Below are positions 10,809 through 59,018 of a stretch of DNA of 64,000 nt, one piece after another (the stretch's first letter is position 1; every line of letters starts with the position of its first letter). The stretch is from positions 62,001 to 126,000 of the forward strand of contig NW_027590554.1 in NCBI RefSeq assembly GCF_964213995.1, read 5' to 3'. The notes below the pieces were generated by a model. It made no database searches. It saw nothing but the letters and a program-made list of their open reading frames with translations, and was not told the DNA's origin. The position numbers were made by a program, and so were the translations under genes. Source of the stretch: Mustelus asterias (Eukaryota).

Positions 10809-11731
10809 AGAAGATTCATTGCTCTCAGCAAACAATTAAAATAAGATGATTTAAGCTTTGATCGAAAGCAGATCTACTGGAATCAGCCGATTGAGGATTG
10901 AAAGTTTACATCAGACCTGGAAATGTCACATGTGCAACAGTTCAAGAACAAACACAGAAAGAGAAGGACAGTGATGGTTTGTCAAGCGCGAAGAATAGGT
11001 AAAATCTGGATTATAATTGGTGAGATTTTACCGATTACACTGTTAGTGAATTATGAAACTTTTCCCTCACTCTGCAATGAAAAGCAATTGGAAAGGTTTA
11101 TGTCCGGCTTCGCACCGTCGGATGCGAAAACGTTAACTGCAGTGGAGTGATTGCTGTGTGCTGTCATTGGCTGAACACATCACTGTATTGAACCAGAAGG
11201 TTCCATTTTTCAGGAGAAACTTGTTTATGGTGAAAGTGGCCTTGCGTGAAAATAAAAATAACAAACGCAGCGTGGATAAAGCAAATTCTAAAACACGTTG
11301 CAAGCTGCTGCCCTGGGGGTTAGAGATTGACACTTTCACTAATGTTTTGACTGCAGGTCAGAAAATGAAGATTTATTGCTCTCATCTAAACCGTGAAAAC
11401 AGATGTCAGTTATTGCCTGGTAGAACATATAACGCACAAACTCACCATGTGTCCCGAAGTGAAGGCCCTGAACACTTCAACATGAAGTTTTATTTTCATT
11501 TCTGTTCGGAGCTTGAGAAGCAGACGAGGTTAAGTAACGTTTAAATCGTGCCAGCCCTTTATTGCAGCTCATTGTGTTTCTGACTGGAGATGATTTCTGT
11601 TTTTCGAACAGTTCAGGATGAGTTGAATCAGTGAAGTTGCAAGTTCCTGACAGGCTTTCCCAATTCCATTGCTTCCAATGTATTTCAGTAACAATATCAG
11701 TAAATTGCATGATTAACACATCTGTCATTGT

Positions 11732-11808
11732 GATAGCGTGGCCGAGCGGTTTAAAGCCGTGGATTAAGGCTCCAGTTTCTATGGAGATTTCGAATTCCAC
11801 CGCTGCCA
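11732..11808 (+). pseudogene. tRNA-Leu(AAG) pseudogene
   Basis: GATAGCGTGGCCGAGCGGTTTAAAGCCGTGGATTAAGGCTCCAGT...TTCGAATTCCACCGCTGCCA; small deletion in the variable/T arm. Confidence 0.85.
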
Positions 11809-12219
11809 GACTCGATTTAAGTTTTGGTCTTTCGGCTGAATTCTAACAGTTCAGATATGTTTGCTCCTTGCTGGATTTCACTTGTCTTCAACTTCCTACC
11901 TTTCTGACCAGTCCCAGTGTTCATGAAAAGTCATGGAGGCGAAAGATGAGCTTTGTTTCCCTGTGCACACTCTGTATTACTTCCTGAGATTTTTCCAACA
12001 TTATCATCTTTCAGTGCAGATGTGTGATCCGCTTGGGATGTCAACGAAAACATATTTAATTGACATGCATCTTTCACGGTTGCCTGTTGGTCCAAAGGTA
12101 TGTTTCCCACTTTGGGTGCTAAAATATGCAAGCTTGCGTGAGGTCCCTGTTCACATCCTGGATAAGACGTCATTTAGCTGTTGTTTCGCATTGGACAAGA
12201 CGAGAATTTTCTTCGTCGA

Positions 12220-14261: not shown

Positions 14262-14493
14262 GAGAACGCACCAATGAGCTGCAAACATCATGTAAAATAT
14301 TTCTGCTGATACCTTCCGATAGCGCTTGTGAAGGAAATGATTGGCTGTAGATTGGGGGACTATGTCTTCTGAGCTTCGTCCCTATCAACAGTGGCGAATA
14401 ACGACACATTGTTGTCGCACTTGCTGTTGCTGCCACGTTGAATGGAAGAGGTCAAATACTTCGAGGAACCATTTGGGTGGTCGGTGTGTTCTG

Positions 14494-14565
14494 GGATCTG
14501 TGGTGTGACGTTGAGTACTCTGGGCTCTGAATCCAGCGATTCGAGTTCAAATAGCGGCAGAGACT
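14494..14565 (+). pseudogene. tRNA-Gln(CTG) probable pseudogene
   Basis: ...TACTCTGGGCTCTGAATCCAGCGATTCGAGTTCAAAT...; B-box retained, acceptor and D arms mutated. Confidence 0.8.
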
Positions 14566-14810
14566 TGCATTGTTTTGCTGAAGCCGCTGATGAGTTTGCT
14601 GCTGGCATTTTATTTAAAATTCTCAGTAAGTGCAAATCTAAACACTGAGGAAACTTCAACACATTCCAACACACTTGCGCCCCCTGCACCGAATGACTCT
14701 CTTGGCATCATTGCTTCAGCCCCAGAGGACGACTGGTCAAGAATAAAAAGCGTTGAGAGGCAGGGGAGCCATTGTGGGCAGGGGGTCCATCTACAGGTGT
14801 CATTCACTCA

Positions 14811-22183: not shown

Positions 22184-22524
22184 CTCATAGAAATCATAGA
22201 AACCCTACAGTGCAGAAAGAGGCCATTTGGCCCATCGAGTCTTCACCGACCACAATCCCACCCAGGCCCTACCCCCATATCCCGACATCTTTACCCGCTA
22301 GTACCTCTAACCTACGTACCTCAGGACACTGAGGGACAATTTTAGCAGAGCCAATCAACGCGCACATCTTTCGACTGTGGGAGGAAACCGGAGCATCCGG
22401 AGAAATCCCACGCAGACACGAGGAGAACGTGCAACTCTACTAGACAGTGACCCAAGACGGGACTCGAACCCAGGTTCCTGGAGCTGTGAAGTAGCAGAAC
22501 TAATCACTGTGCTGCCGTGCCGCT
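22184..22524 (-). mobile_element. HE1-type SINE, full length
   Basis: tRNA-like head GCGGCACGGCAGCACAGTG, B-box GGTTCGAGTCC, TTTCTATGA tail. Confidence 0.9.
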
Positions 22525-22690
22525 CTCGTAGAGACATAATGACTGAAGTGGCAGGATACTGGAAACTTGGATGAAGGCTGATCCCAGGTTCATGAAGATT
22601 CTTGCATGGCTGACAGTTACATTGTGGCTGCATCTGCCCGCGGTTCTGTGCAACCCGCCGCAGACAGGGTTTCAATCTATAGTTAAAGGC

Positions 22691-23195
22691 AGTTTTGGTC
22701 CAGCAGTCAGACTGCTTTCCATCACTGTGCATCTCAGCGAGAGCGCAGTAATACACGGCAGCGTCATTCAGCTGCAGACCCGAGATAGTCAAACCGGTGA
22801 ATTTACTCGATGTCTGAAGCTCTCCAGAGAAACGGCTTTTCGCAAAATCTGCTATATCTTCACCAAATATCGAGTTTTTCCTCAATAGAAACACAGGTTG
22901 CGTGCTTGTGTTTTGCCGGGACCAGGGTAAAACGTAGTTGCTCATTATAATATCATAGGTACAGTTTAAACTCAACGTTTTTTCTTCCGTCTTTACTTCT
23001 GAGGATAGCGACTGAGTGACAGAATCTCCATGACTCAGATCTGAAAAACCTGCTCAAGCAGAAACAAATCAGACCGACTGAATGCTTAAAATTTAATTTT
23101 AAACCACGTTTGTAAAATTAAAATAAATATGAAATGTGTTTGGTTCACAATTACCTATTACGACTATTCCACAAACAACCCAAATGCCTTGTCAT
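22691..23195 (-). pseudogene. TCR delta/alpha-type V segment (V-B): open V exon and good 23-RSS, frameshifted leader
   Basis: Exon 23040-22730 LSHGDSVTQ...LNCTY...WSRQ...DAAVYYCALAEM; RSS CACAGTG-23-ACCAAAACT; leader 23195-23155 is 41 nt (phase 2, whereas phase 1 is needed). Confidence 0.9.
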
Positions 23196-34593: not shown

Positions 34594-37559
34594 ATGCATG
34601 CCCCAGGAAACAATCCAGTGCTTGCTATTTACTATCCGATTCTTGCTGCTGTTGGTGTCCTGGGTAAGTTATTACAACAACTGGTTGTCCAAAGAGATTG
34701 TGTCCTGTACCAAGTGTCAGAATCGTCCAAATCTTTGGTTTATGAAGTTTTCAGATTTCTTTCACTAGTGCCCTTATTTCAATAAAATTTGATTGAAGGT
34801 CATTAGGTGGGATTGTGAAGTCTTGCTGGTGAGCCGCTTGTTGAGGAGAGAACAGTAAGTTTCAGATAGAAACAGGTGAATTGGTATTTAAATATACAGC
34901 AAGTGGAGAGATTGGAGCAAAATCCTTTTTTGTATTCATTCGTGAGACATGGGTGTCGATAACTGGCCAGCCTTTGTTCCCATCCCTAGTTGCCTTTGAC
35001 ATGGCCAATGCATGCTGCCCAACCAGCGACGCTCATGTCCCACAAAATAAAATCTGTCAAAACAGTGTTTCCCTTCAATTTCTCCCCTTGCCAATTATTT
35101 TCAATACCACTTCACTTTTTCGGAAAGGTAGAGCCTGATCGGATGGGAACTGGATGAAAACCCCAGAGGGGTACTTATAACCTTGAATTACTGGCAATTC
35201 GCGATACTTCATGAAATAAAGATAAAAAAGTTTCTTGGTTTGAATCCCTGAATGCCATAAAGCATGAATTGAAATGGTGGACCTGAATAGGATTGAAAGA
35301 AAGTCAGTCTGTGCTGCTTAAATAAAGATCAAGGGGGTGAATGGCGTGGCGAAGTAAACCCATCTCAAAATGTGGCAAGAAAAGCGCTCTGAGGAATTCT
35401 GGGTGATTTGACTATCTAAAACAATGACAGGAGTCATGAAATTTCATTCGAAATGTACAGGGACTGATTTAATTACAATGAAATGCTATCCTTCATTACG
35501 AGCGCAATTTAATATATAAATAATATGGATGTAATGGTTCAATCATACAGCGCATTAATGAGACAACATTTGGAATAATGTGCACAGATTTGGTGTCTCC
35601 TTTTGATGAAGGATGTGAATGCATCAGAGGAGCTCTGCTCCTTTGATATCTGGAATGAGTGTATTATCTTATGGCAGTGTGAGATATTGTCCACTGGTGT
35701 TTAGAAGAGTGAGGGGTGAACCCATTGACGTATATGAAATCCTGAACTGCCTTGAAGAGGTGGATGCAGCAATCATATGTCATCTTCTGGGTGAGTCTGG
35801 AACTGGGGGCGGCAATGCTTCAAAATTAAGGGCAGCCACGTTAAGACAAGAGACGTGGAGATTATTTCTTCTTCTTCTAGACAGTTGCATGACTTTGGAA
35901 CTCGATGCAAGAGATGGCAGTGGATATGGCGACTTTGACCTTTTTGAGGCAGAGGCTGATATACTGTTAGAAAAGAAAATCAAAGGTTTTTGGAGGTAGA
36001 TTGGAAAGTGGAATTTGGAAACACAAACAAATCAGCCATGTTGTCGTTGAACGGTTGAACAGGCTCAAGGTGTCGAATGATATAATTTTTCTGGTGTTTC
36101 ACATTTCGTAAACTGCAAAAAATCTGTCTATGGATAGAATTCCAGACAGTTGGTGCACAGACAGGCGTCAATGCACCCGAGTCTATGGAGAGATTTGCAG
36201 ACAATCTGTTTGTCGGTACAATCTGATAATAAGTTTCTGATGCAACGATTTTTGAACAATAATTTGATATGACCAGATATATGAAAAGAAATAATTAACG
36301 GCTGTATCTAACCAGCACGTTTCCTGAAGCAGAATTTCTGAATCATTGAATTGCTGACACACATTGAGTCCTGCCACCGGTGTCTTTCATTAAACTGATT
36401 GAGGAGGTCCTGGTTTGGTTTCAGTGCCCCGATCCGCATGCAGTTCTGAAGATCACCCACACCACTTTACAACTATGGCTCCTGTTAAGCTTTTTCAACC
36501 ATGTCGACCTCCTTATAGACTAATTTGTCCATCAGAATCAGAATCTACAACTTTGCCATCGTGCTGTGCAACATCCGTGTTTTATGTTAACAAACTTTTG
36601 ACAGTAGCCATATGTAACTCCCCTGAATACTTCTTCTCTGCCTTACAGCTAACATTGTCACCATTGTGATCCTGTCCAGAGGAAGGTGTGGTCTATCCAG
36701 ATGCATCACTCGTTACCTGTTATCCATGGCGGTGACAGATCTCCTGGTCATTATCACCGCTGTGATATTGAACAGGATTGCCGGTATATATTTTAGATTT
36801 AGTCGACTTTCCACCACTCCAGCCTGTACTGTGACCTCTATCTTAATTTACACTGCCACGGACAGTTCTGTCTGGTTAACGGTTGCTTTTACCTTTGATA
36901 GATTTGTGGCCATTTGTTGCTCGAAACTGAAAACAAAATATTGCACTGAGAGAATGGCGGTGGGGGTGATAGGAACAGTTTGTGCCCTGAGCTGCTTAAA
37001 AAACATCCCCTCTTATCTGACTTATGAACCGATGCTCATAGTGGACAATGTTGCGTGGTTATGTAACATTAAAGATATATTTTATACCTCTCTTGGGTGG
37101 ACAATATATGACTGGTTTGACCGAATTTCTACCCCTTGTCTTCCGTTCCTCCTGTTGTTACTGCTGAATGCTCTGACCGTTAGACACATCCTAGGTGCCA
37201 ATAGAGCCAGAAAAAGACTCCGCAAACAGAGCAATAGAGAAAATCCGATTGACCCTGAGATGGAGAACCGGAGAAAATCCATTGTTTTACTCTTCAGTAT
37301 CTCGGGCAGTTTTTTGTTGCTATGGACAATGTATGTTGTAAATTTCTTGTATGTTCGAGTTACAAAAAATAATTATTTTTCGGGCTCCAATTTTAATGAC
37401 CCAAAGTTCATCTTACAAGAAACCGGGAATACTCTTCAGCTTTTAAGTTCTTGCACCAACACCGTTGTTTATGGCGTGACCCAGAGGAAGTTCAGACAGG
37501 AGCTAAAAAACGGGATAAAATATCCACTGAGTCTCATTGTGAAATTAATGAAAAAATGA
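34594..37559 (+). CDS. Two-exon class A GPCR, GPR139/GPR142-like, 326 aa; exons 34594-34663 and 36649-37559
   Basis: Exon 1 MHAPGNNPVLAIYYPILAAVGVL ends G/GTAAGT and joins in phase to TTACAG/CT-AAC; seven hydrophobic segments, TFDRFVAIC, DPEMENRRKSIVLLF, SCTNTVVY; no stops. Confidence 0.92.
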
Positions 37560-41603: not shown

Positions 41604-42305
41604 TGTAATCACTTGTGAACTCACTGGTGTTTCATCAAGTTTGCTGACTGAGTGAATCCCTTCCCAGTCAGAGCAGGTGACCAGCCTCTGCCTGGTGTGA
41701 ACTCACTGGTGGGACATTAGTTCCCGAGAGCTTTTGAAGCCACGCCCACATTTAAAGGGTCTCTCCTGGGTGTGATGATGTTGTGTCTGGGCAGGCTGGA
41801 TAACCGAGTAAATCCTTTCGCACACACCGAGCAGGTGAATGGTTTCTCCCCGGTGTGAACTCACTGGTGTTTCAGCAGTGTTGATGATATTCTAAACCTC
41901 CTTCAACAGTGAGAGCAGCTGAACGGCCTCTCCCGGTGTGAATGTGCTCGGGGATCATCAGTTCCCGAGAGCTTCTGAAGCCGGCCTCTCAGAAGAGCAT
42001 TTAAAGGGTCTCTCCTTGGAGTGAGTGGCTTTGTGTTTCTGCAGGCTGGATGACTGAGTGAATCCCTTCCCACACACAGAGCAGGGGAATGGTCTCTCCC
42101 CAGTGTGAACTCGCTGATGTTCCCACAGGCTGGATGACCTTTTAAACCTCTTTGTGCAGTGAGAGCAGCTGAACGGTCTGTCCTCAATGTGAATGCGCTG
42201 GTGGGACACCAGGTCCTGAGAGCTTTTGAATCCGCTCCCACAGTCAGATCATTTAAACAGTGTCTCATTCGTGTGAGTGACTTTGTGTCTGCGCAGGTGG
42301 GATGA
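41604..42305 (-). pseudogene. Tandem C2H2 zinc-finger pseudogene fragment
   Basis: [29 protein letters not shown] and related fingers with stops and frameshifts; cut by CR1 at about 42320. Confidence 0.9.
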
Positions 42306-44314: not shown

Positions 44315-47300
44315 CTATAAGGGTAAGGCTAGGGTGGTTGAGAGCACCCCGGTGGATTTGCCCCTGCACAACAAGTACTCCTGCTTGAGTACTGCTGGGG
44401 GGGACAGCCCGCCTGGGGGAAGCAGCAGTGGCCGTGTCTCCGCAGTGGAGTCCAGCCCTGTAACTCAGAGGGCTAAGGAAAAGAGGAGGAAGGCGGTAGT
44501 AATCGGGGACTCGATGGTGAAGGGGACAGACAGGCGTTTCTGCGGAGGTAGGCGGGATTCTCGCATGGTGGTCTGCCTCCCTGGGGCCGGGATCCAGGAT
44601 GTCGCTAGTCGCGTCCCAGAAATCCTGAGGTGGGAGGGAGAGGAGCCTGAGGTAGCGGTACATATTGGTACCGCTGATGTGGGTAGGAAGGGAGAAGGGG
44701 TCATGAAAAGGGAGTACAGGGAATTAGGGAGACAGCTGAGAAAGAGGAAAGCAAAGGTAGTAATCTCAGGATTACTGCCTGTGCCACGGGAAGGTGAGGG
44801 CAGGAATGGAGTGAGGTGGAGGATGAATGTGTGGCTGAGGGACTGGTGCAGGGGGCAGGGATTCAGGTTCCTGGACCATTGGGACCTCTTTAGGGGCAGG
44901 GGTGATCTGTATACAAAAAACGGGTGGAACTTGAATCACACGGGGACCAATATCCTGGCCGGTAGGTTGGCTAAGGCTACTGGGGAGAATTTAAACTAGA
45001 TAGGTTGGGGGGAGGGGAGCTAGAAGAGTTGACTAGGATCAAGGAACTAATTGATGGGGGGGAGGATGCAGGGGTAAGGGGAATTACAAAATTAATGGTA
45101 GAGGAGAGGGTGCAAGTGAATGAAGGCGGTAATTTAGATAAGGGAGTAGAGGGAGACGGTGTTCGCGACTCATCAAAGCGGGTTCAGATAAAAGCTGGAA
45201 TAAGGACACTTTGCCTGAATGCACGAAGCATTCGGAACAAGGTGAATGAGTTGATGGTGCAAATCAGCACAAGTGGGTACGATCTAGTGGCCATTACAGA
45301 AACGTGGCTGAAAGGTGACCAGGACTGGGAGATGAATATCCAGGGGTATCAGGCGTTTAGGAAGAATAGACAGGAAGGAAAAGGTGGTGGGGTCGCGCTA
45401 TTAATAAGAGATAATATCAGGGTAGTACTGAGGGATGACATAGGCTCTGAGGAACAAAACGTGGAATCGTTATGGGTAGAGATGAGGAATAGTAGAGGGA
45501 GAAAGATACTAGTAGGTGTGGTATATAGGCCCCCAAATAATAATGTTGAGGTAGGGAGGGCTATAAACAAGCAGATAAGGGATGCGTGTAAAAACGGAAC
45601 GGCAATAATCATGGGGGACTTCAACATGCACATTGACTGGCAGACTCAAGTCGGTAATGGTGGAATGGAGGAAGAGTTCTTAGAATGCTGTCGGGATAGT
45701 TTCCTTGAACAGCATGTTACGGAACCGACGAGGGAACGAGCTATTTTGGATCTGGTATTGTGTAACGAGGTAGGTAGAATTAAGGATCTTATTGTGAAGG
45801 ACCCTCTTGGGTCTAGTGACCACAATATGGTCGAATTTCTGATTCAGATGGAAGAGGAGAAAGTTTGGTCTCAAACCAGTGTCCTCTGTTTGAACAGAGG
45901 GAAATATGATAGGATGAGGGATGAATTGGCTAAGGTAGACTGGGAGAGCAGGCTGGCAGGTAGGATAGCTGAGGAACAGTGGAGGATTTTTAAGGAGATC
46001 CTTTTCAGTTCTCAGCAAAAATATATTCCAGCAAAAAACAAGGATTGTAAGAAAAGGGAGAACCAGCCGTGGATAACGAAGGAAATAAAGGAGAGTATTA
46101 AAATAAAAACAGCTGCGTACAGAGTGGCCAAAAATAGTGGAGAAACAAGTGATTGGGAAAAATTTAAGAAACAACAAAGAGAGACTAAGAAAGCGATAAA
46201 GAAAGGAAGGATAGACTATGAAGCTAGGCTAGCAATTAATATACAAAATGATAGTAAAAGTTTTTATAAATATATAAAAAGGAATAGAGTGGCTAGAGTG
46301 AATGTTGGACCCTTGGAGGACGAGAGGGGGGAGTTAATAGTGGGAAATGAGGATATGGCTGAGTCTTTAAATAAGTTTTTTGTGTCGGTCTTCACGGTGG
46401 AGGACACAAATAGTTTGCCAAATATTAACGATAGAGGGTTGGCAGCAGGAGAAATACTTAATACGATTAATGTTACCAGAGAGGCAGTGCTGGGTAGACT
46501 AATGGGACTGAAGGTGGACAAGTCCCCGGGTCCGGATGGAATGCATCCCAGGGTATTGAAAGAAATGTCAGAGGTAATAGTGGATGCGTTAGTGATTATT
46601 TATCAAAACTCGTTGCATTCTGGGGTAGTGCCGGTTGATTGGAAAACGGCTAATGTTACGCCGCTGTTTAAAAAAGGAAGGAGACAAAAGGCGGGTAACT
46701 ATAGGCCGGTCAGCTTAACGTCTGTAGTAGGGAAAATGCTGGAATCCATTATTAAGGAGGAGATAGCAGGGCATCTGGATAGAAATGGTTCGATCAATCA
46801 GACGCAGCATGGATTCATGAGGGGAAAGTCGTGCTTGACGAACATGTTGGATTTTTATGAAGATGTGACTAGGGCGGTTGATGGAGGAGAACCGGTGGAT
46901 GCGGTGTTTTTGGATTTCCAAAAGGCGTTTGATAAGGTGCCCCATAAAAGGCTGCTGAAGAAGATTAGGGCACACGGAGTTGGGGGTAGTGTGTTAAAGT
47001 GGATTGGGGACTGGCTATCCGACAGGAAGCAAAGAGTCGGAATAAATGGGTGTTTTTCCGGTTGGAGGAAGGTAACTAGTGGCGTGCCGCAGGGATCGGT
47101 ACTCGGGCCGCAACTATTTAGCATTTATATAGATGATCTGGAGGAGGGGACGGAGTGTAGGGTAACGAAGTTTGCAGACGACACAAAGATAAGTGGAAAA
47201 GTGAATCGTGTGGAGGACGGAGAAGATCTGCAGAGAGATTTGGACAGGCTGAGTGAGTGGGCGAGGATATGGCAAATGGAGTATAACGTTGAGAAATGCG

Positions 47301-48110
47301 AGGTTATACACTTTGGAGGAAATAATAACAAATGGGATTACTATCTCAATGGAAACAAATTAAAACATGCTACCGTGCAAAGGGACCTGGGGGTCCTTGT
47401 GCATGAGACGCAAAAGCCCAGTCTGCAGGTACAACAGGTGATCAAGAAGGCAAATGGGATGTTGGCCTATATTGCGAGGGGGATAGAATATAAAAGCAGG
47501 GATGTCTTGATGCACCTGTACAGGGCATTGGTGAGGCCGCAGCTGGAATACTGTGTGCAGTATTGGTCCCCTTATATGAGGAAGGATATATTGGCATTGG
47601 AGGGAGTGCAGAGAAGGTTCACCAGGTTGATACCGGAGATGAGGGGTTTGGATTATGAGGAGAGGCTGAGGAGATTGGGTTTGTACTCGTTGGAGTTTAG
47701 AAGGATGAGGGGGGATCTTATGGAGACTTATAAGATAATGCGGGGGCTGGATAGGGTGGAGGCGGAGAGATTCTTTCCACTTAGTAAGGAAGTTAAAACT
47801 AGAGGACACAGCCTCAAAATAAAGGGGGGTCGGTTTAAGACAGAGTTGAGGAGGAACTTCTTCTCCCAGAGGGTGGTGAATCTCTGGAATTCTCTGCCCA
47901 CTGAGGTGGTGGAGGCTACCTCGCTGAATATGTTTAAAGCGCGGATGGATGGATTCCTGAGCGGTAAGGGAATTAAGGGTTATGGGGATCAGGCGGGTAA
48001 GTGGTACTGATCCACGTCAGATCAGCCATGATCTTATTGAATGGCGGGGCAGGCTCGAGGGGCTAGATGGCCTACTCCTGCTCCTATTTCTTATGTTCTT
48101 ATGTTCTTAT
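44315..48110 (+). mobile_element. Young CR1 LINE: C-terminal ORF1 (SGNH esterase-like) and uninterrupted ORF2 45005-48010
   Basis: ORF1 VVIGDS...VHIGTAD...VVISGLLP; ORF2 has APE (NARS, ITETW, GDFN, SDH) and RT (QGSVLGP, FADD) motifs with no stops. Confidence 0.97.
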
Positions 48111-52686: not shown

Positions 52687-53234
52687 CCTCACTGCACAGT
52701 AATAGACCGCCCCGTCCTGCACTCTGAGGGTGCTTATATTGAGGTAACCGTTCTGTTTAGACGCGTCAGAAGCCGCCAGATATCGTCCTGAAACTTCATC
52801 TTCCTTCACTGTTAATGCTTTGGTAATAATCCATGTCGCTGGTTGTGTCGGTTTCTGCTGATACCATTGCATGCTGTACATATTCTTGTCTGTATATTCA
52901 CAACCCAACTGCACTGAATCCCCTTCTGATGCGGTTATTGGCAGCGATGACTGTGCTACTGGATCTGCGCACAGTCCGCCTGTGAAGGTAGAGGAATGAA
53001 ATATCAAGAGTTAATGTTTGTATCTGCGATTGTTTCTGCAGCACCCGCCCCTCCCCCCCCCCACCCCCCACCCCCACCTCCCCCACCCCCACCCCCACCT
53101 CCCCCACCCCCATTCACCCCTCACATCGATAATTGTGATGGTTAATTATATTACCATCTAATGTGTTTATCTGGCTTGATGTACGTTACCCAGTGCTTAC
53201 CGTGCAAGAGCGCCGCCAGGAAGATCAGAAACAT
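52687..53234 (-). CDS. TRAV: Intact TCR alpha-type V gene segment (V-D): leader 53234-53201, V exon 52979-52687
   Basis: MFLIFLAALLH-G-GLCADPVAQ...VQLGCEY...MQWYQQKP...LNISTLRVQDGAVYYCAVR; GT-AG intron in phase; conserved Cys/Trp/Cys; alpha versus delta is inferred from the CAVR end. Confidence 0.92.
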
Positions 53235-53270
53235 GTCTGAGTGAATCTATCTCACTGAATGGGAACGGAG

Positions 53271-53516
53271 TGAGTCAGAGGTTGAGAAGGAGAGAGGGAA
53301 CCCGGGCTCTGTTCAGCTCATTGCAGTGAGTGTGTTTGTGAGAGTGTCAGTGTGCGTGGGTCAGTGTGAGTTTATGTGTCTGTGTTTGTGGGTGTTGGGG
53401 GGGGGGGGGGGGCTGTGTCTATTGTGACCTCACAAGCCTACCATCCATGCAGGTGTCAGTGATAATATCACGTGAGTTTCTGGCACCCAGGCTAGAATGT
53501 GGCGCTCTCTGGTGGC
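53271..53516 (-). promoter_or_regulatory. V-D promoter region with AP-1, CRE-like, E-box and CTCF-like motifs
   Basis: TGAGTCA 53271-53277; TGACCTCA 53425-53432; CACGTG 53469-53474; GCCACCAGAGAGCGCCA (minus strand) 53500-53516. Confidence 0.5.
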
Positions 53517-53859
53517 GGGTTCTGCGCGCTGGAATTAGGCTGTTGACTGGGTTCCTCACTACAATACAGAACAAGACACACATGCTGCCGAAAAATCTAA
53601 ATTACGGCTCTTTAGACACGGTCTTTGTGACTGTTGATATTTATTTGGGAAAATGATGCTAAATCTGTGAAAATCATGGCTGGAGTTCGCTGTTCAAATC
53701 CTGGGACGACAAAATCGGGAGAACACCCATAGTTTGGACAAATTGGTTACAAATCAGAATAGTGTCAGGGATTAACAGACTAATTTGGTTTCTTTGGCTT
53801 CTAACAAGGGAGGTACGAAAAGTAACTTTATTGACCTGTTCAGAATGTTGCCCTTTTCA

Positions 53860-54116
53860 GAGGGTAAAATGTGGTATTATAACTCCATTTTAAAGTCACC
53901 TGTTCTTCTGTTTTAACTGCTGCGGACCGCGGCTGAGTGACAGAGTCTCCATGAGCCACATCTGGAAAAGTTTGCCTTTTCCAGAAGAGGTAGATTCATG
54001 AAAAATGATTCTACACCCGAGGTGCAGTCTCAGATTTGAAAAGGGGAATAAATAAAAACGCGGAAGAATTAATCGACGGAAATTGTCGAACACAAACATG
54101 AGTCTTGAAGATTCAT
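53860..54116 (-). pseudogene. TCR V pseudogene (V-G), 5' part only, V-B family
   Basis: TTTTCCAG/AT-VAHGDSVTQPRSAAVKTEEQVTLKWSY (first Cys replaced by Trp); 43-nt leader-like exon 54116-54074 with a dead donor. Confidence 0.75.
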
Positions 54117-54606
54117 AGGTGGGAGAAAGCTGCATTTTGTAGTTCCATATCTCTGCCACCAGAGGACAGGACGATACCATGTTGCGTTCAGGCTCGGGGC
54201 TATTTGCAGTCTCCAGTCGTGGCCAGTAACATTATTGAGAAAATGTAATTAAAAGAGCAAATGTCGGAACAGAAATATTTTAGCATTGATAGCAAACTTA
54301 TATTGTTTCACGAGATATATTATGAGTTTTCAAAGTTGATATTACTGTTGATATACTGCAAATATTCTCGTTCGTTCAGCTTGGCACTCGGCATTCTTTG
54401 TGTAGCCTGACGGGTAATATGTGTACTTTATACACAAAAGCGCCCAGTCGAGTTAGCAATATTGGGCGGATATTTTGCTGGAGCTTTAAGTCCACAAATG
54501 CTGATGTGGTGGATTATTTCAACAATGTCGGCTTTCATCAGAGATGGCTAAACTGCATTGGCGAAAGAGAAATGAGCTATATTTTGCTTACGCTTGCTTT
54601 TGGGTA

Positions 54607-54697
54607 GGTTGGTTGGTCGAAGAGCATGATTATTGCTTCGGGTATTTTAGTCGATGAGACATGCGGGAGGTTCCGGGTTCAAATCCTAGACGAGCCC
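54607..54697 (+). tRNA. tRNA-Pro(CGG)-like gene with a 19-nt intron-like insertion (54643-54661); probably decaying
   Basis: Aligns end to end to vertebrate tRNA-Pro; intact B-box GGTTCAAATCC; TTTT 14 bp downstream; mismatches in acceptor and anticodon stems. Confidence 0.8.
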
Positions 54698-55254
54698 TTT
54701 AATTGCCTCCTTTTGACCAAGTCAGGTATTGTGATTTGTTTCGGGTGCAAACGGCGGGATTGCTTTCCGCTGGCCAACTCCGAAAAAGGATCATAGAGGC
54801 ACAAAGTTTTACAGAACGGAAAGGGGCCCTTCGGCCCATCGTGTCCGGGTTGGCCATCTGACATCTGGACTGGAAACGTTAACTCTGTTTCTCGCTCCGC
54901 AGATACTGCCAGAACTACTGAAATAACCCAGCATTTTCTGTTTTTATTTCAGATTTACAGAATCTGCAGTATACTGCATTATATACAAGCACATATATAA
55001 AGCCTAACAGAAGGCAGCATACTATATAACTATCTATCTAGATAGATCACTATGGGAGGAAACCGGAGCACCCGGAGGAAACTACAGGGAGAAAGTGCAA
55101 ACTCCACACATACTGTGACCCGAGGTCAAGAATTGAACCTGGGACCCTGGCGCTGTGAGGCAGCAGTGCTAACCCAAAATGCATCTTCCCAGGAACAGCC
55201 AGGGTCTATAGGAAATGCATTTGCCAGCGTTGGACACCTAACCGTTTGATATCT

Positions 55255-55328
55255 ACACTCCAGATGGGACTCGAGTACACAACCCGTGGTTTATAAAGCC
55301 AGTATCTTACCCATTACGGCAATGGGGT
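55255..55328 (-). pseudogene. tRNA-Arg(CCT)-derived pseudogene
   Basis: Reverse complement ACCCCATTGCCGTAATGGGTAAGATACTGGC...TCGAGTCCCATCTGGAGTG; anticodon mutated. Confidence 0.7.
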
Positions 55329-55734
55329 TGCATTCGTGCTATTGCTGCAGCTTGTAAAAGCTGCAAATCTTCATCATCACAGATAGTGACTAAACCAGGA
55401 ATCGAAACAACGTACTTGGCATGCTGAGGCAGCAGATCTAACCATTGTGGCGTCCTCTCCCACAAAATTCTATGAAATTCTATAAATTGCAGATTTTGTT
55501 TATTTCTTTGCGGTGCAGATGAAGGGATTGGTTCTCATGGGGTTTAGTTTGAGAACCTGAGCACAAACTGCGGGGAATCTATCAGCACAACACATTCGAT
55601 AGACAATCAAGATACGTTCAACAGGGTTGGCTATGCAACTGGACATTCATTTTATCCCCATTCACCTCTTCAGCTGACCCCATGACTGCGGGTTCGGGGA
55701 ACTGGCTGGATGTTTCTTTTTGTTCATGTGGGTG

Positions 55735-56190
55735 TCGCTTGGTTAGATCAGCATGGACTGCCCATCAGTAATTACCCTTGAGAATGTGGTGGTGACCTGT
55801 CTTCTTGAAACGTTGCAGTGTATTTGTGTAGGTACACCCACAGTGCTGTTAGGGAGAGAATTCCAGGAATTTATCCCAATGACTGTGAAGGAACGGTGAT
55901 ATATTTCCAAATCAGAATGCTGAGTGACTTGAGGTGCGGGGGGGAGGGGGGGGGGGGTATGCAGTGGATCGGGGGAGTGGGGGCAAACCTGCCAGTGGTA
56001 GTGGTCTTGGGTTTTGAAGGTGCTGTCTAATGTGCGTTTGGTGAATTCCTGCATCCTCCAGACAAGTGGAAAGTATTCTATCACACTCCTGATTTGTGCC
56101 TTGTAGATCGTGGTCTGTTTTTTGGGAGTCAGGAGGTGAGTTATTCGCCGCAGGTTTCCCAGCCTCTGACCTGCTCTTGTAGCCACCTCG
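55735..56190 (-). mobile_element. Old CR1/L2-group LINE 3' fragment
   Basis: AGQRLGNLRRITHLLTP...IYKAQIRSVIEY and SWNSLPNS. Confidence 0.75.
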
Positions 56191-56586
56191 AACTGATAAA
56201 ATGTCTCCTGAGTCACAATAAGCGCATCTTCTTTCCTGTTCATTTTGTTGTGAATTTTCAGCACTTCTCTTTTTCCCTGAATGTATTTTTAGGCATAACT
56301 AAGAGCCAATGTCTTTGATTGTAAGATATTCTACTCGGGTAATGTTCGGCAGTGGATTCACAGAGGGAGTAGTTAGGGGTTGAGTCGTGTTACTGTCGCT
56401 GGAAATTAAACGCAGAGAAGCAGGCTGAATTCCAACACAGCAGATTGACTGAATTCAAGGGCCATTAGGGATGGCAGTAAATAAAATATTAATTAAGCAA
56501 CCTTTCCTCACTTAAACGTATTGGTTTCTGCCCGGCTTTGAACCGTCTGGCCAATATGTAGCAAATGTTGCAAATTCCACGTATGT

Positions 56587-56659
56587 GGGCCAGTGGCGCA
56601 ATGGATAACGCGTCTGACTACGGATCAGAAGATTCCAGGTTCGACTCCTGGCTGGCTCG
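56587..56659 (+). tRNA. TRR-ACG: tRNA-Arg(ACG), intact
   Basis: GGGCCAGTGGCGCAATGGATAACGCGTCTGACTACGGATCAGAAGATTCCAGGTTCGACTCCTGGCTGGCTCG is the canonical vertebrate sequence; TTTT terminator at 56667-56670. Confidence 0.98.
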
Positions 56660-57991
56660 CTGTAAATTTTAAAAATAGTTCGTAAACTCCATTTCAGTTT
56701 CGATGAAAAAATGTATTTTCAGTAACTTTGAACCAATTCAGACAAATGTTTACTCAATCCAGTCACCTTCTATGAAGAAATTTATCTTAGGTCATTAATT
56801 TTCAAAAGAAAGTTGGCCATTTTAAGTAAGATTCCACTGATAAACTTTCATTGAGTATGTTTAAATTATTTTCTTTAAATTACGAATTTTCGTGAAATTA
56901 TTTGGAAAAAGTATTTTAAGCTATCTTTTAAAAAGTTGGGAATTTCTAGATAAATAACGTGGAAATCTTACATTTTTGAAAATGGTGAAAATAGTTTCTA
57001 ATAAGTTGATGAAAATTTGTAAAACTCTGCGAAGGAATTTAATTTAAATATCTTTCGTAGAAAGAAGTTCACAAAATACTCAAGTTCCATCGAAATGTTT
57101 TTTCAAAAGTTGAGAAATTCTAGTTAAATTCCATTGAGGAATTTCTTTGAAGTAAGTTTAGTTTAGAAAAGTTAAAATTAGCGAGGTTTATGACCCTGCG
57201 ATTATTCTCCATTTGAGTGAAGAAGATTGAGGAGTGATTTAATCGAGGTGGACTAAATTAGGATAAGTTTTGAGGGGGAAGAGGCAAATTTAAAGATTTT
57301 TGGCAAGGCGGGCGCAGAGAAGATTTGGAAGGAACATTTTTCCGCAGCGAGCGCTAAGAGCCAGAAACTCATTGCCTACGAGTGTTAGATGCAGTTAATT
57401 TAGATAAATATAAATTCTGAGGCCGGAGATGGATTCCCTGAGAAAAGAGATGTTTCCAGGAACATTCTGAGGCAAGTATAAAGTTTATTTATTAGTCACA
57501 AGTAGGCTTACATTCACACTGAAATTAAGTTACTGTGAAAATCCCCGAGTCGCCAAACTCCAACGCCTGTTCAGAATCTCCTCGATGATATTGAATCTGG
57601 AAGATCAATCTATGGAACCATACCCCTTCCCCCTCCACCGCCCCCACCCGCTGCTGTGATGTTTGATAAGAACCCCGCTGATGTTAAATGCGAGGCATCC
57701 CAAAATCAAAAAAAGGTATTTTGGGACATTGGTTCTTAGTTGTGTATGTTTTCAATTTGATATAATATGAAAAGAGATATGCAAAATATTGAAACTATCG
57801 AATTGGAACTTCCGACATTGTTACAACAACATTAACTGTTTCCCCTCACGGCCATCACCTCCCACGCTGTGTAAGGGGCCAATATTGCAGTGAATTCTCG
57901 TCTCTCTAAAAAACAATTTGACTGATTCGCTGAAGCTGCTCTGACGTAATGAATTGGAGATCAAAGGGTCTGTGAGCTGATTGGATGAATT

Positions 57992-58106
57992 GGCCATGAT
58001 GTGGAGTTGCCTGCGTTGGACTGGGGTAGGCACAATGAGTAGTCTCACAACACCAGGTTAAAATTGGTAGCACGAGCTTTCGGAGCGCTGCGCCTTCATC
58101 AGGTGA
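57992..58106 (-). mobile_element. Penelope-like terminus containing a minimal hammerhead ribozyme motif (58071-58105)
   Basis: CAC-CUGAUGA-A-GGCGCAGCGCUCC-GAAA-GC-UC-GUG on the minus strand. Confidence 0.7.
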
Positions 58107-59018
58107 CGGATGAATTGGAGAACAGGAGGCCGTGGAGCTGATTAGACGTCACCAGTTGATTCTTTCAGGAATGAACCAATCGCTGGAGAGACCGGATATA
58201 TGTGAATATCTTCACAGAAACAATTACAGGTTCACCCATTCTGTTTAATTCCGCAATAAACTTGCTGCTAACATGTAGGGTCTCGTTTTGTATTAAGTTC
58301 TCACTGTTTCAGCTCTCTTACTTGGTCAGTCAACAATTTACACAATCTTCCTCTTGCAAGCAACTTCGACATTAATTTAATTTCGCTTTGTTGCAAATTA
58401 CAATGTGATCCGTTCCCTAATGCTATTATTTACAATCAAATGATAATGACATCTTAACGCTTGATGTTTCTAAATTTCTGCAGGTGTCATTGCTGCAGAC
58501 TCGATCTCACAGGAGCCGGTGATAGCGATGTTTTCTGTGTTAAACTGTGACATATGTGTTAAATAATGCATTGATATTAAATATTGAAACAAATACTGAG
58601 TACAATTGTACAATGAGCTTTGATAAAGTGCCATCTGGATCTGAAACGTCAGCTCCTTTCTCTCCTCACAGATGCTGCCAGACCACGTGAGATTTTCCAG
58701 CATTTTCTCTTTTGTTTTCTGATTCCAGCATCCTCAGTAATTTGCTTTTATTAATGAGCACAATCGGTTGAGAATTTTCAATGGACGATGAGAATGGATG
58801 CATTAATGAATGAGCAGAAATCATTGGTCCCGTAGATATTTGCCAAACGAACGCTTTTAAATTTTGAAGTTCAAGATAATGCGAGCAATCAGATTGAAAG
58901 TAACGGTTTTCTTCCTGAAACAAGTGACATGGGCTCTCAGTCAAGCCATTGAAACCTGCAGAAACACAGCGCAGTTAACATTGCAGATAGATAGATTTGC
59001 TGGAGTTTGCTGCCAGCT

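Follow-up and report, generated by a model that had tools for sequence, protein, structure and literature searches.

The window, a 64,000-nucleotide stretch of shark DNA (C522:62001-126000 in an assembly of 3.68 Gb and 5313 contigs), carries a tRNA-Pro(CGG) sequence with a 19-nt insert at 37/38 on its forward strand (54607-54697). The 5' exon (nt 1-37, 36 nt, 54607-54642) includes U32 at 54637, the anticodon CGG at 54639-54641 and G37 at 54642. The intron remnant (19 nt, 54643-54661) contains TTTT at 54645-54648 and has A at its third-last position (-3, 54659), and the 3' exon (nt 38-73, 36 nt, 54662-54697) retains an intact B box at 54677-54685. The 3' trailer (54698-54715) ends in TTTT (54711-54714), which is likely the Pol III terminator of this copy, and several dispersed retrocopies of its intron lineage stop at the matching place. 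Because only 12 of 72 positions set the joined exons apart from those of the intact intronless Pro-CGG gene L047, the sequence is clearly a tRNA-Pro and not a chance resemblance; an Arg-TCG label assigned by relaxed ARAGORN was rejected, as the exons match Pro. Since the insert begins with T and nt 38 is also T, it could be placed at 37/38 or 38/39; the families of L032 and L051, in which the intron begins with G and ends with A or C, fix the site at 37/38 unambiguously. The first-pass annotation had read this locus as a tRNA-Pro(CGG) interrupted by 19 nt at 37/38, and the sequence, the match to L047 and the site in L032 and L051 all agree with that reading.

The same annotation had proposed that the third-last base of the insert could pair with U32. 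The A at 54659 can form this pair, but the pair is probably a by-product, because the insert is one base longer than the 18-nt introns of its relatives and the extra base shifts the register. The anticodon-intron helix is absent from this copy, in which 32 (U-A) and 33 (U-G) pair, 36 forms a wobble, and 34 and 35 are mismatched. It had also been suggested that the T-run in the insert might stop Pol III. The run is present at 54645-54648 but is derived and not diagnostic: six of eight dispersed relatives of this intron have TTT and not TTTT, and L050 has near-perfect exons despite TTTT inside its intron, which leaves the run unsupported as a sufficient cause of inactivation.

That the window copy is a decayed member of its family, as first proposed, holds: besides its 12 exon changes it has lost G18, and its exons have diverged like the flanks. 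Eight of the 12 substitutions relative to L047 fall in the 5' exon, where the A box has lost G18, and the 3' exon has mismatches and wobbles in the anticodon and T stems. Among 21 stem pairs, 12 are Watson-Crick, 6 are GU and 3 are mismatched, compared with 19, 1 and 1 in L047. With these substitutions, the loss of G18 and the stem damage, the copy has no intact cloverleaf with the invariant nucleotides, and it was detected neither by ARAGORN at default settings nor by Rfam in gathering or E-value mode. It folds no better than its shuffles (z 0.21), compared with z of -1.7 to -2.5 in three intact relatives, although whole-molecule folding gave no cloverleaf even for intact members, and this is only a rough comparison of stability. 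None of the 13 matches to the 19-nt insert has intact exons; each shows 10 changes or more. Within the clade of this copy, exon and flank differences amount to 13/72 and 76/582 in one comparison and to 5/72 and 34/590 in another (P=0.14 and P=0.40 for an exon excess); exon change is not below flank change, and purifying selection on these exons is not seen within the clade. Insertions have broken several other clade members (L013/L014 and L016-L022); in one, a 2-kb insertion at the anticodon stem splits the gene, and seven others stop inside the T-run of the intron. The window copy is a damaged tRNA gene and likely a dead pseudogene.

The copy lies in a segmental duplication (53090-56215, +) that is 97.7-99.7% identical over 3.1 kb to nine other loci, some of which may be redundant haplotigs. 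Over 126 nt, eight copies do not differ at all, and because the 3.1-kb flanks are so similar the duplication is judged recent. The 126-nt identity, together with the B box and the formal U32-A pair, might be taken to mean that the copy is itself active and that its many identical copies have been kept through use. We regard this as very improbable, because the flanks are just as identical, as expected of recent duplication, G18 is gone and three stems are damaged, exon change is not below flank change, and a 2-kb insertion interrupts one copy while seven others end within the intron. The copy also belongs to a duplicated cassette (54414-58530, +) that comprises the Pro gene, a decayed Arg-CCT-like gene on the minus strand and an Arg-ACG gene, and that is collinear with C71:12.57 Mb at 74-81% identity. 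There, an intron-bearing Pro-AGG gene (L066/L188) takes the Pro slot, and the two Arg genes come after it as in the window. In the window, the Arg(CCT)-like gene lies at 55257-55328 (-), with approximate ends and a label assigned by eye and matched by an ARAGORN call in L188, and the Arg(ACG) gene at 56587-56659 (+) is intact and intronless (ARAGORN default; Rfam, 60.3 bits). The flanks of the window copy match seven intron-bearing Pro-AGG loci at 69-78%.

Elsewhere the window holds three other decayed tRNA genes detected by Rfam or relaxed ARAGORN, Gln (2490-2561, -), Leu-AAG (11731-11809, +) and Gln (14493-14566, +). Pfam identified an Ig V-set frame (22355-23053, -), a single-exon 7tm_1 GPCR frame (36627-37559, +) and an open LINE frame of 1011 aa encoding endonuclease/reverse transcriptase (44975-48010, +), and many other LINE fragments are present. 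A repeat with a 250-bp period (41749-42297) resembles a zinc-finger remnant.

For the family as a whole, exact core-exon patterns were searched over the genome, with no matches to the reversed-pattern controls. The search returned 143 insert-bearing Pro matches (18 with CGG and 125 with other anticodons) and 10 without an insert (1 and 9, respectively), counts that may include haplotigs and pseudogenes of the 5313-contig assembly. All of the 100 matches listed among the 125 non-CGG ones are AGG or TGG. The proposal that this lineage has an intron-containing Pro-CGG family is thus borne out by the 18 insert-bearing matches with intact core exons; the insert is not unique to the window copy, and the other Pro-CGG genes are not all intronless (18 insert-bearing and 1 intronless). 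The intron is not specific to CGG, as AGG and TGG Pro genes and Arg-TCG genes carry introns too. The idea that the 19 bases entered a single tRNA pseudogene by chance, for which nothing speaks beyond the decayed state of the window copy, is refuted by the 143 insert-bearing matches, by the homologous intron in intact paralogs with common flanks and by a helix conserved across the family, and we give it virtually no credence.

Forty-eight of the 143 loci were examined, comprising all 18 CGG and 30 of the 125 non-CGG matches. Their inserts are 13-18 nt long and represent 31 unique sequences. The exons are the same as those of the intronless gene except at nt 34 in 13 of the 48 genes, and differ at one position at most in 28. 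Identity over eight lineage representatives is 0.98 in the exons (0.967 outside the search pattern), 0.41 in the intron and 0.43-0.44 in the flanks, and the paralogs L058 and L061 differ at 0/72 exon, 7/18 intron and 49/520 flank positions (P=0.0008). Intact intron-bearing members therefore have exons that match a working tRNA and are conserved above their introns and flanks. On the large contig C19 (L087, 64.52 Mb), a divergent single-copy Pro-AGG pair, L050/L051, has the same exons and unrelated introns. The main intact Pro-CGG intron family (L032-L040 and L042-L046, the C85 type) accounts for 14 of the 18 CGG matches and has U-U at the anticodon-intron position; most of its members carry a D-loop T that is missing from the intact intronless CGG gene and would mark their spliced product.

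In spliced tRNA precursors, the pyrimidine at 32 forms a pair with the third-last base of the intron, and the pairing is extended by an anticodon-loop helix (PMC10275265; PMC8479045). The register was set beforehand from this literature. In the 31 unique introns, 89.5% of the cells between nt 32-35 and intron positions -3 to -6 are paired, compared with 46.8% after shuffling, a level reached in 0 of 20000 shuffles, although these counts overstate independence because the introns are related. The value is 90.6% in the eight representatives, and slid registers give 34-56% in the intron set. Position -5 tracks nt 34, being T with A34 in 7/8, G with C34 in 5/9, and A with U34 in 10/14 with 3 further wobbles. 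Several of the exceptions look like recent anticodon switches, for example L031, a CGG gene with the intron and flanks of the TGG family; in the lineage of the window intron, five of eight retrocopies depart from the covariation, with an AGG anticodon and G at -5. The family shares with canonical tRNA introns a single insert at 37/38 that is short and variable in sequence, with an anticodon-intron helix in the intact members.

The pair at position 32 is less favourable. With U32 present in all Pro genes, their anticodon-intron pair is weak: among the 31 unique introns, U32 faces A in 14, G in 11 and U in 6, and U-U is found in 14 of the 18 intact-core CGG matches. As examples, L051 has U-A within four Watson-Crick pairs, L058 has U-G and L032 has U-U. 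For its cut at the 3' splice site, human TSEN needs the position-32 pair (PMC8479045), and fly and human reporters spliced less well with U-A at this position, yielded hardly any product with G-U or U-G and none when it was unpaired (PMC6614914). Judged by these reporter results, many Pro copies may splice poorly because of their weak U32 pairs.

Retrocopies provide traces of RNA. The 18-nt form of the window intron occurs in eight dispersed copies, seven of which meet a SINE 20-37 nt past the gene, and none of the eight shares upstream flank over 400 nt. This pattern points to past transcription through the intron, and past transcription is all that the dispersed intron-bearing copies imply. 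A different trace is L078: it lacks the intron, its exons meet precisely at 37/38, and it keeps a few leader bases and a trailer of 44 nt before a 5'-truncated LINE. Its trailer comes from an intron-bearing TGG family (35 of 40 positions identical to L063, with L191 closer still), and L078 is the only one of the 30 intronless loci examined with an intron-family trailer, with L241 unassigned. The simplest reading of this single case is that a spliced precursor was copied into L078. As possible alternatives, the lack of the intron may go back to local gene conversion or to an ancestor without an intron, since the intronless TGG cluster on C3, around which other intronless retrocopies gather, is 5.5 Mb away. 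Within L088:4333-5400 (C3:136.70 Mb), L078 has a 354-bp inverted twin with 96% identity that starts at nt 38, the 3' splice site, and looks as if it had been copied from a cleaved 3' half.

Intronless Pro genes were found by a looser pattern search, which gave 32 matches, all on large contigs. Of the 30 loci inspected, 8 appear intact, whereas 22 have decayed or arose by retroposition, and three retrocopies are among the 10 perfect-core intronless matches. Each Pro anticodon has one or more intact intronless genes, and Arg-TCG has L212. The intron-bearing set is therefore dispensable on paper, and its splicing need not be essential.

Taking these results together, the Pro insert family is real and the window copy is a damaged, duplicated and likely non-functional member of it; as judged from the sequences, we consider it highly probable that the inserts of intact members are TSEN-spliced introns at 37/38. 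On the evidence of the retrocopies, Pol III would begin transcription of intact members a few bases upstream of nt 1, pass through the intron and stop at the first T-run. TSEN takes its measure from the mature domain of the tRNA and cleaves a bulge-helix-loop at both ends, and an intact precursor would be cut at its own bulge-helix-loop in this way. Ligation by RTCB is then predicted to yield a tRNA-Pro that is the same as that from the intronless genes. The intron-bearing genes appear to have been amplified with duplications of tRNA/zinc-finger-type clusters, with birth and death of copies, and would form a pool next to the eight intronless Pro genes that are intact and lie on large contigs.

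A rather improbable alternative is that the insert-bearing Pro genes are mostly inert amplified repeats with an inefficiently spliced insert, that the eight intronless genes supply tRNA-Pro, and that exon conservation merely reflects recent duplication or gene conversion. It would fit the U32 pair, which is weak or absent in 17 of the 31 unique introns when compared with the reporters (PMC6614914), the intact intronless genes of every anticodon and the common decay of tRNA genes in the clusters. It is harder to reconcile with exons that are 0.98 identical while introns and flanks are at background, also in the single-copy C19 pair L050/L051, with the conservation of intron bases at helix positions and the tracking of nt 34 by -5, with the precise junction in L078, or with the retention of C32-G in 12 of 13 unique introns of Arg-TCG. 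A sequencing-run search with L051 returned word shares of 0.24-0.28 in four other organisms and 0.04-0.06 in RNA rows, with no shark RNA run among them, values that are uninformative on the intron in other species or on expression.

The second isotype with introns is Arg-TCG. An Arg pattern left open at nt 34 gave 59 insert-bearing matches, all TCG, and a single intronless TCG/CCG/GCG match, the intact gene L212 on C24, so Arg-TCG has the same two-tier pattern as Pro, an intron-bearing set and an intact intronless gene. The introns (L192-L211 on C85, C102, C103, C130, C141, C155 and others) are 16-22 nt long. In the 13 unique introns, drawn from 20 loci, position 32 is always paired, as C32-G in 12 of them, and U33 is unpaired. 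Over nt 32-36, 76.9% of cells are paired, compared with 45.2% after shuffling (0/10000), although the introns are GAT-repetitive and sliding the register by 3 therefore still gives 69%. A survey of 600 kb of clusters on two contigs found clear inserts in Pro, Arg-TCG and two Arg-TCT-like genes, and no insert in its Leu, Met, Gly, Ser, Thr, Asp, Trp, Lys, Cys, Asn and Arg-ACG calls; many of the tRNA genes in these clusters are decayed.

The spliced tRNAs of vertebrates are usually given as four families, which in humans are Tyr-GUA, Ile-UAU, Leu-CAA and Arg-UCU (PMC10275265; PMC9023262; PMC12168002). The exons here are Pro, with Arg-TCG as a second family, and belong to none of the four mammalian intron families, so that Pro and Arg-TCG introns extend the set. 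As in the human and mouse families, a single short intron of variable sequence lies at 37/38 and forms a helix with the anticodon loop, and Arg-UCU and Leu-CAA of human and mouse also mix intron-bearing and intronless genes; unlike those families, the isotypes here are Pro-AGG/TGG/CGG and Arg-TCG. The proximal pair of shark Pro is U-A, U-G or U-U, whereas it is C-G in all 16 intronic tRNAs of the fly (PMC6614914). Isodecoder genes tend either all to have or all to lack introns, and mixed families are usually of separate origin (PMC4090602), whereas the shark Pro exons are the same with or without the intron.

The first-pass annotation had raised the question of whether such a family is already catalogued. 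We found no literature text that names Pro or Arg-TCG introns in a vertebrate, and the word 'intron' is absent from a study of bird tRNA genes (PMC8044555); however, a listing in GtRNAdb, which covers the elephant shark, is possible. The family is also partly anticipated by the Squalomix preprint, which reports clustered, high-copy, intron-containing tRNA genes in shark genomes on the basis of tRNAscan-SE. These are very probably the same loci as the Pro/Arg family described here, which likely accounts for the surplus of intron-containing tRNAs that has been reported in sharks. The accessible text of the preprint names no isotype and contains no analysis of helix, selection or splicing, although its Fig. 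3A and supplements may name isotypes.

Outside vertebrates, budding yeast has 10 intron-containing tRNA-Pro(UGG) genes (PMC4090602), and fission yeast Pro-CGG carries m5C34 made by Trm4a (PMC11408192). Yeast Pro is like shark Pro in having a canonical intron in a Pro isotype, but the yeast family is fungal and has the intron in every gene, and the likeness is one of isotype. Recent gains in Lachancea Ala-UGC and Kluyveromyces Gly-UCC (PMC4090602) resemble the shark case in that a lineage-restricted intron occurs in an isotype that is intronless in relatives and spreads with anticodon switches; the shark case differs in being vertebrate, in having more than 100 matches with three anticodons and a second isotype, and in that both gain and retention are possible.

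With regard to origin, it is possible, though unlikely, that the Pro and Arg-TCG introns are old, dating from jawed vertebrates or earlier, and were lost towards mammals and not gained in cartilaginous fishes. Cross-lineage intron identity at background (0.41) and the unalignable flanks of the main families indicate an old intron, budding yeast Pro-UGG genes have introns (PMC4090602), and intron losses in animals are documented (PMC12530127). On the other side, the only tRNAs called intron-rich in the text of a survey that covered 576 GtRNAdb genomes are Tyr-GUA, Ile-UAU, Leu-CAA, Arg-UCU and Met-CAU (PMC12168002), and the Squalomix preprint has intron-containing loci expanded in sharks. No flank is common to 15 intron-bearing and 7 intronless loci, and gain and loss are not polarised by this comparison. 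A slightly less probable and more speculative reading is that cartilaginous fishes gained the Pro and Arg-UCG introns de novo and expanded them into a second tRNA pool that is gated by splicing. In this scenario, and with the same reserve, the weak U32 pair might make TSEN rate-limiting for most Pro tRNA genes, or the intron might enable an intron-dependent modification of the anticodon; equally tentatively, the few intronless genes with the same exons might act as a splicing-independent baseline. If true, tRNA intron gain would have its first worked vertebrate example here, together with a natural test of the proximal-pair rule. While the window copy by itself is an ordinary pseudogene, the family bears on how tRNA introns arise or vanish and on their purpose; because intron-bearing and intronless genes have the same exons and U-A, U-G and U-U variants occur naturally, both questions are testable with natural substrates.

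The intronless Pro loci also reveal some minor features. The loci and their retrocopies (L213-L242) lie at C3:128-147 Mb, C4:147 Mb, C10:112-121 Mb and C17:65-73 Mb. At C4:147.25 Mb (L092:4093-4165, -), an intronless Pro-TGG isodecoder has a compensatory G30-C40 swap in the anticodon stem, and a retrocopy of this isodecoder is found on C20 (L240). Most retrocopies of intronless Pro genes, which are chimeras of a tRNA with a SINE or LINE, lie within ~15 Mb of the apparent source on the same contig, with exceptions on C7 and C20, which suggests that the retroposition of these copies is local.
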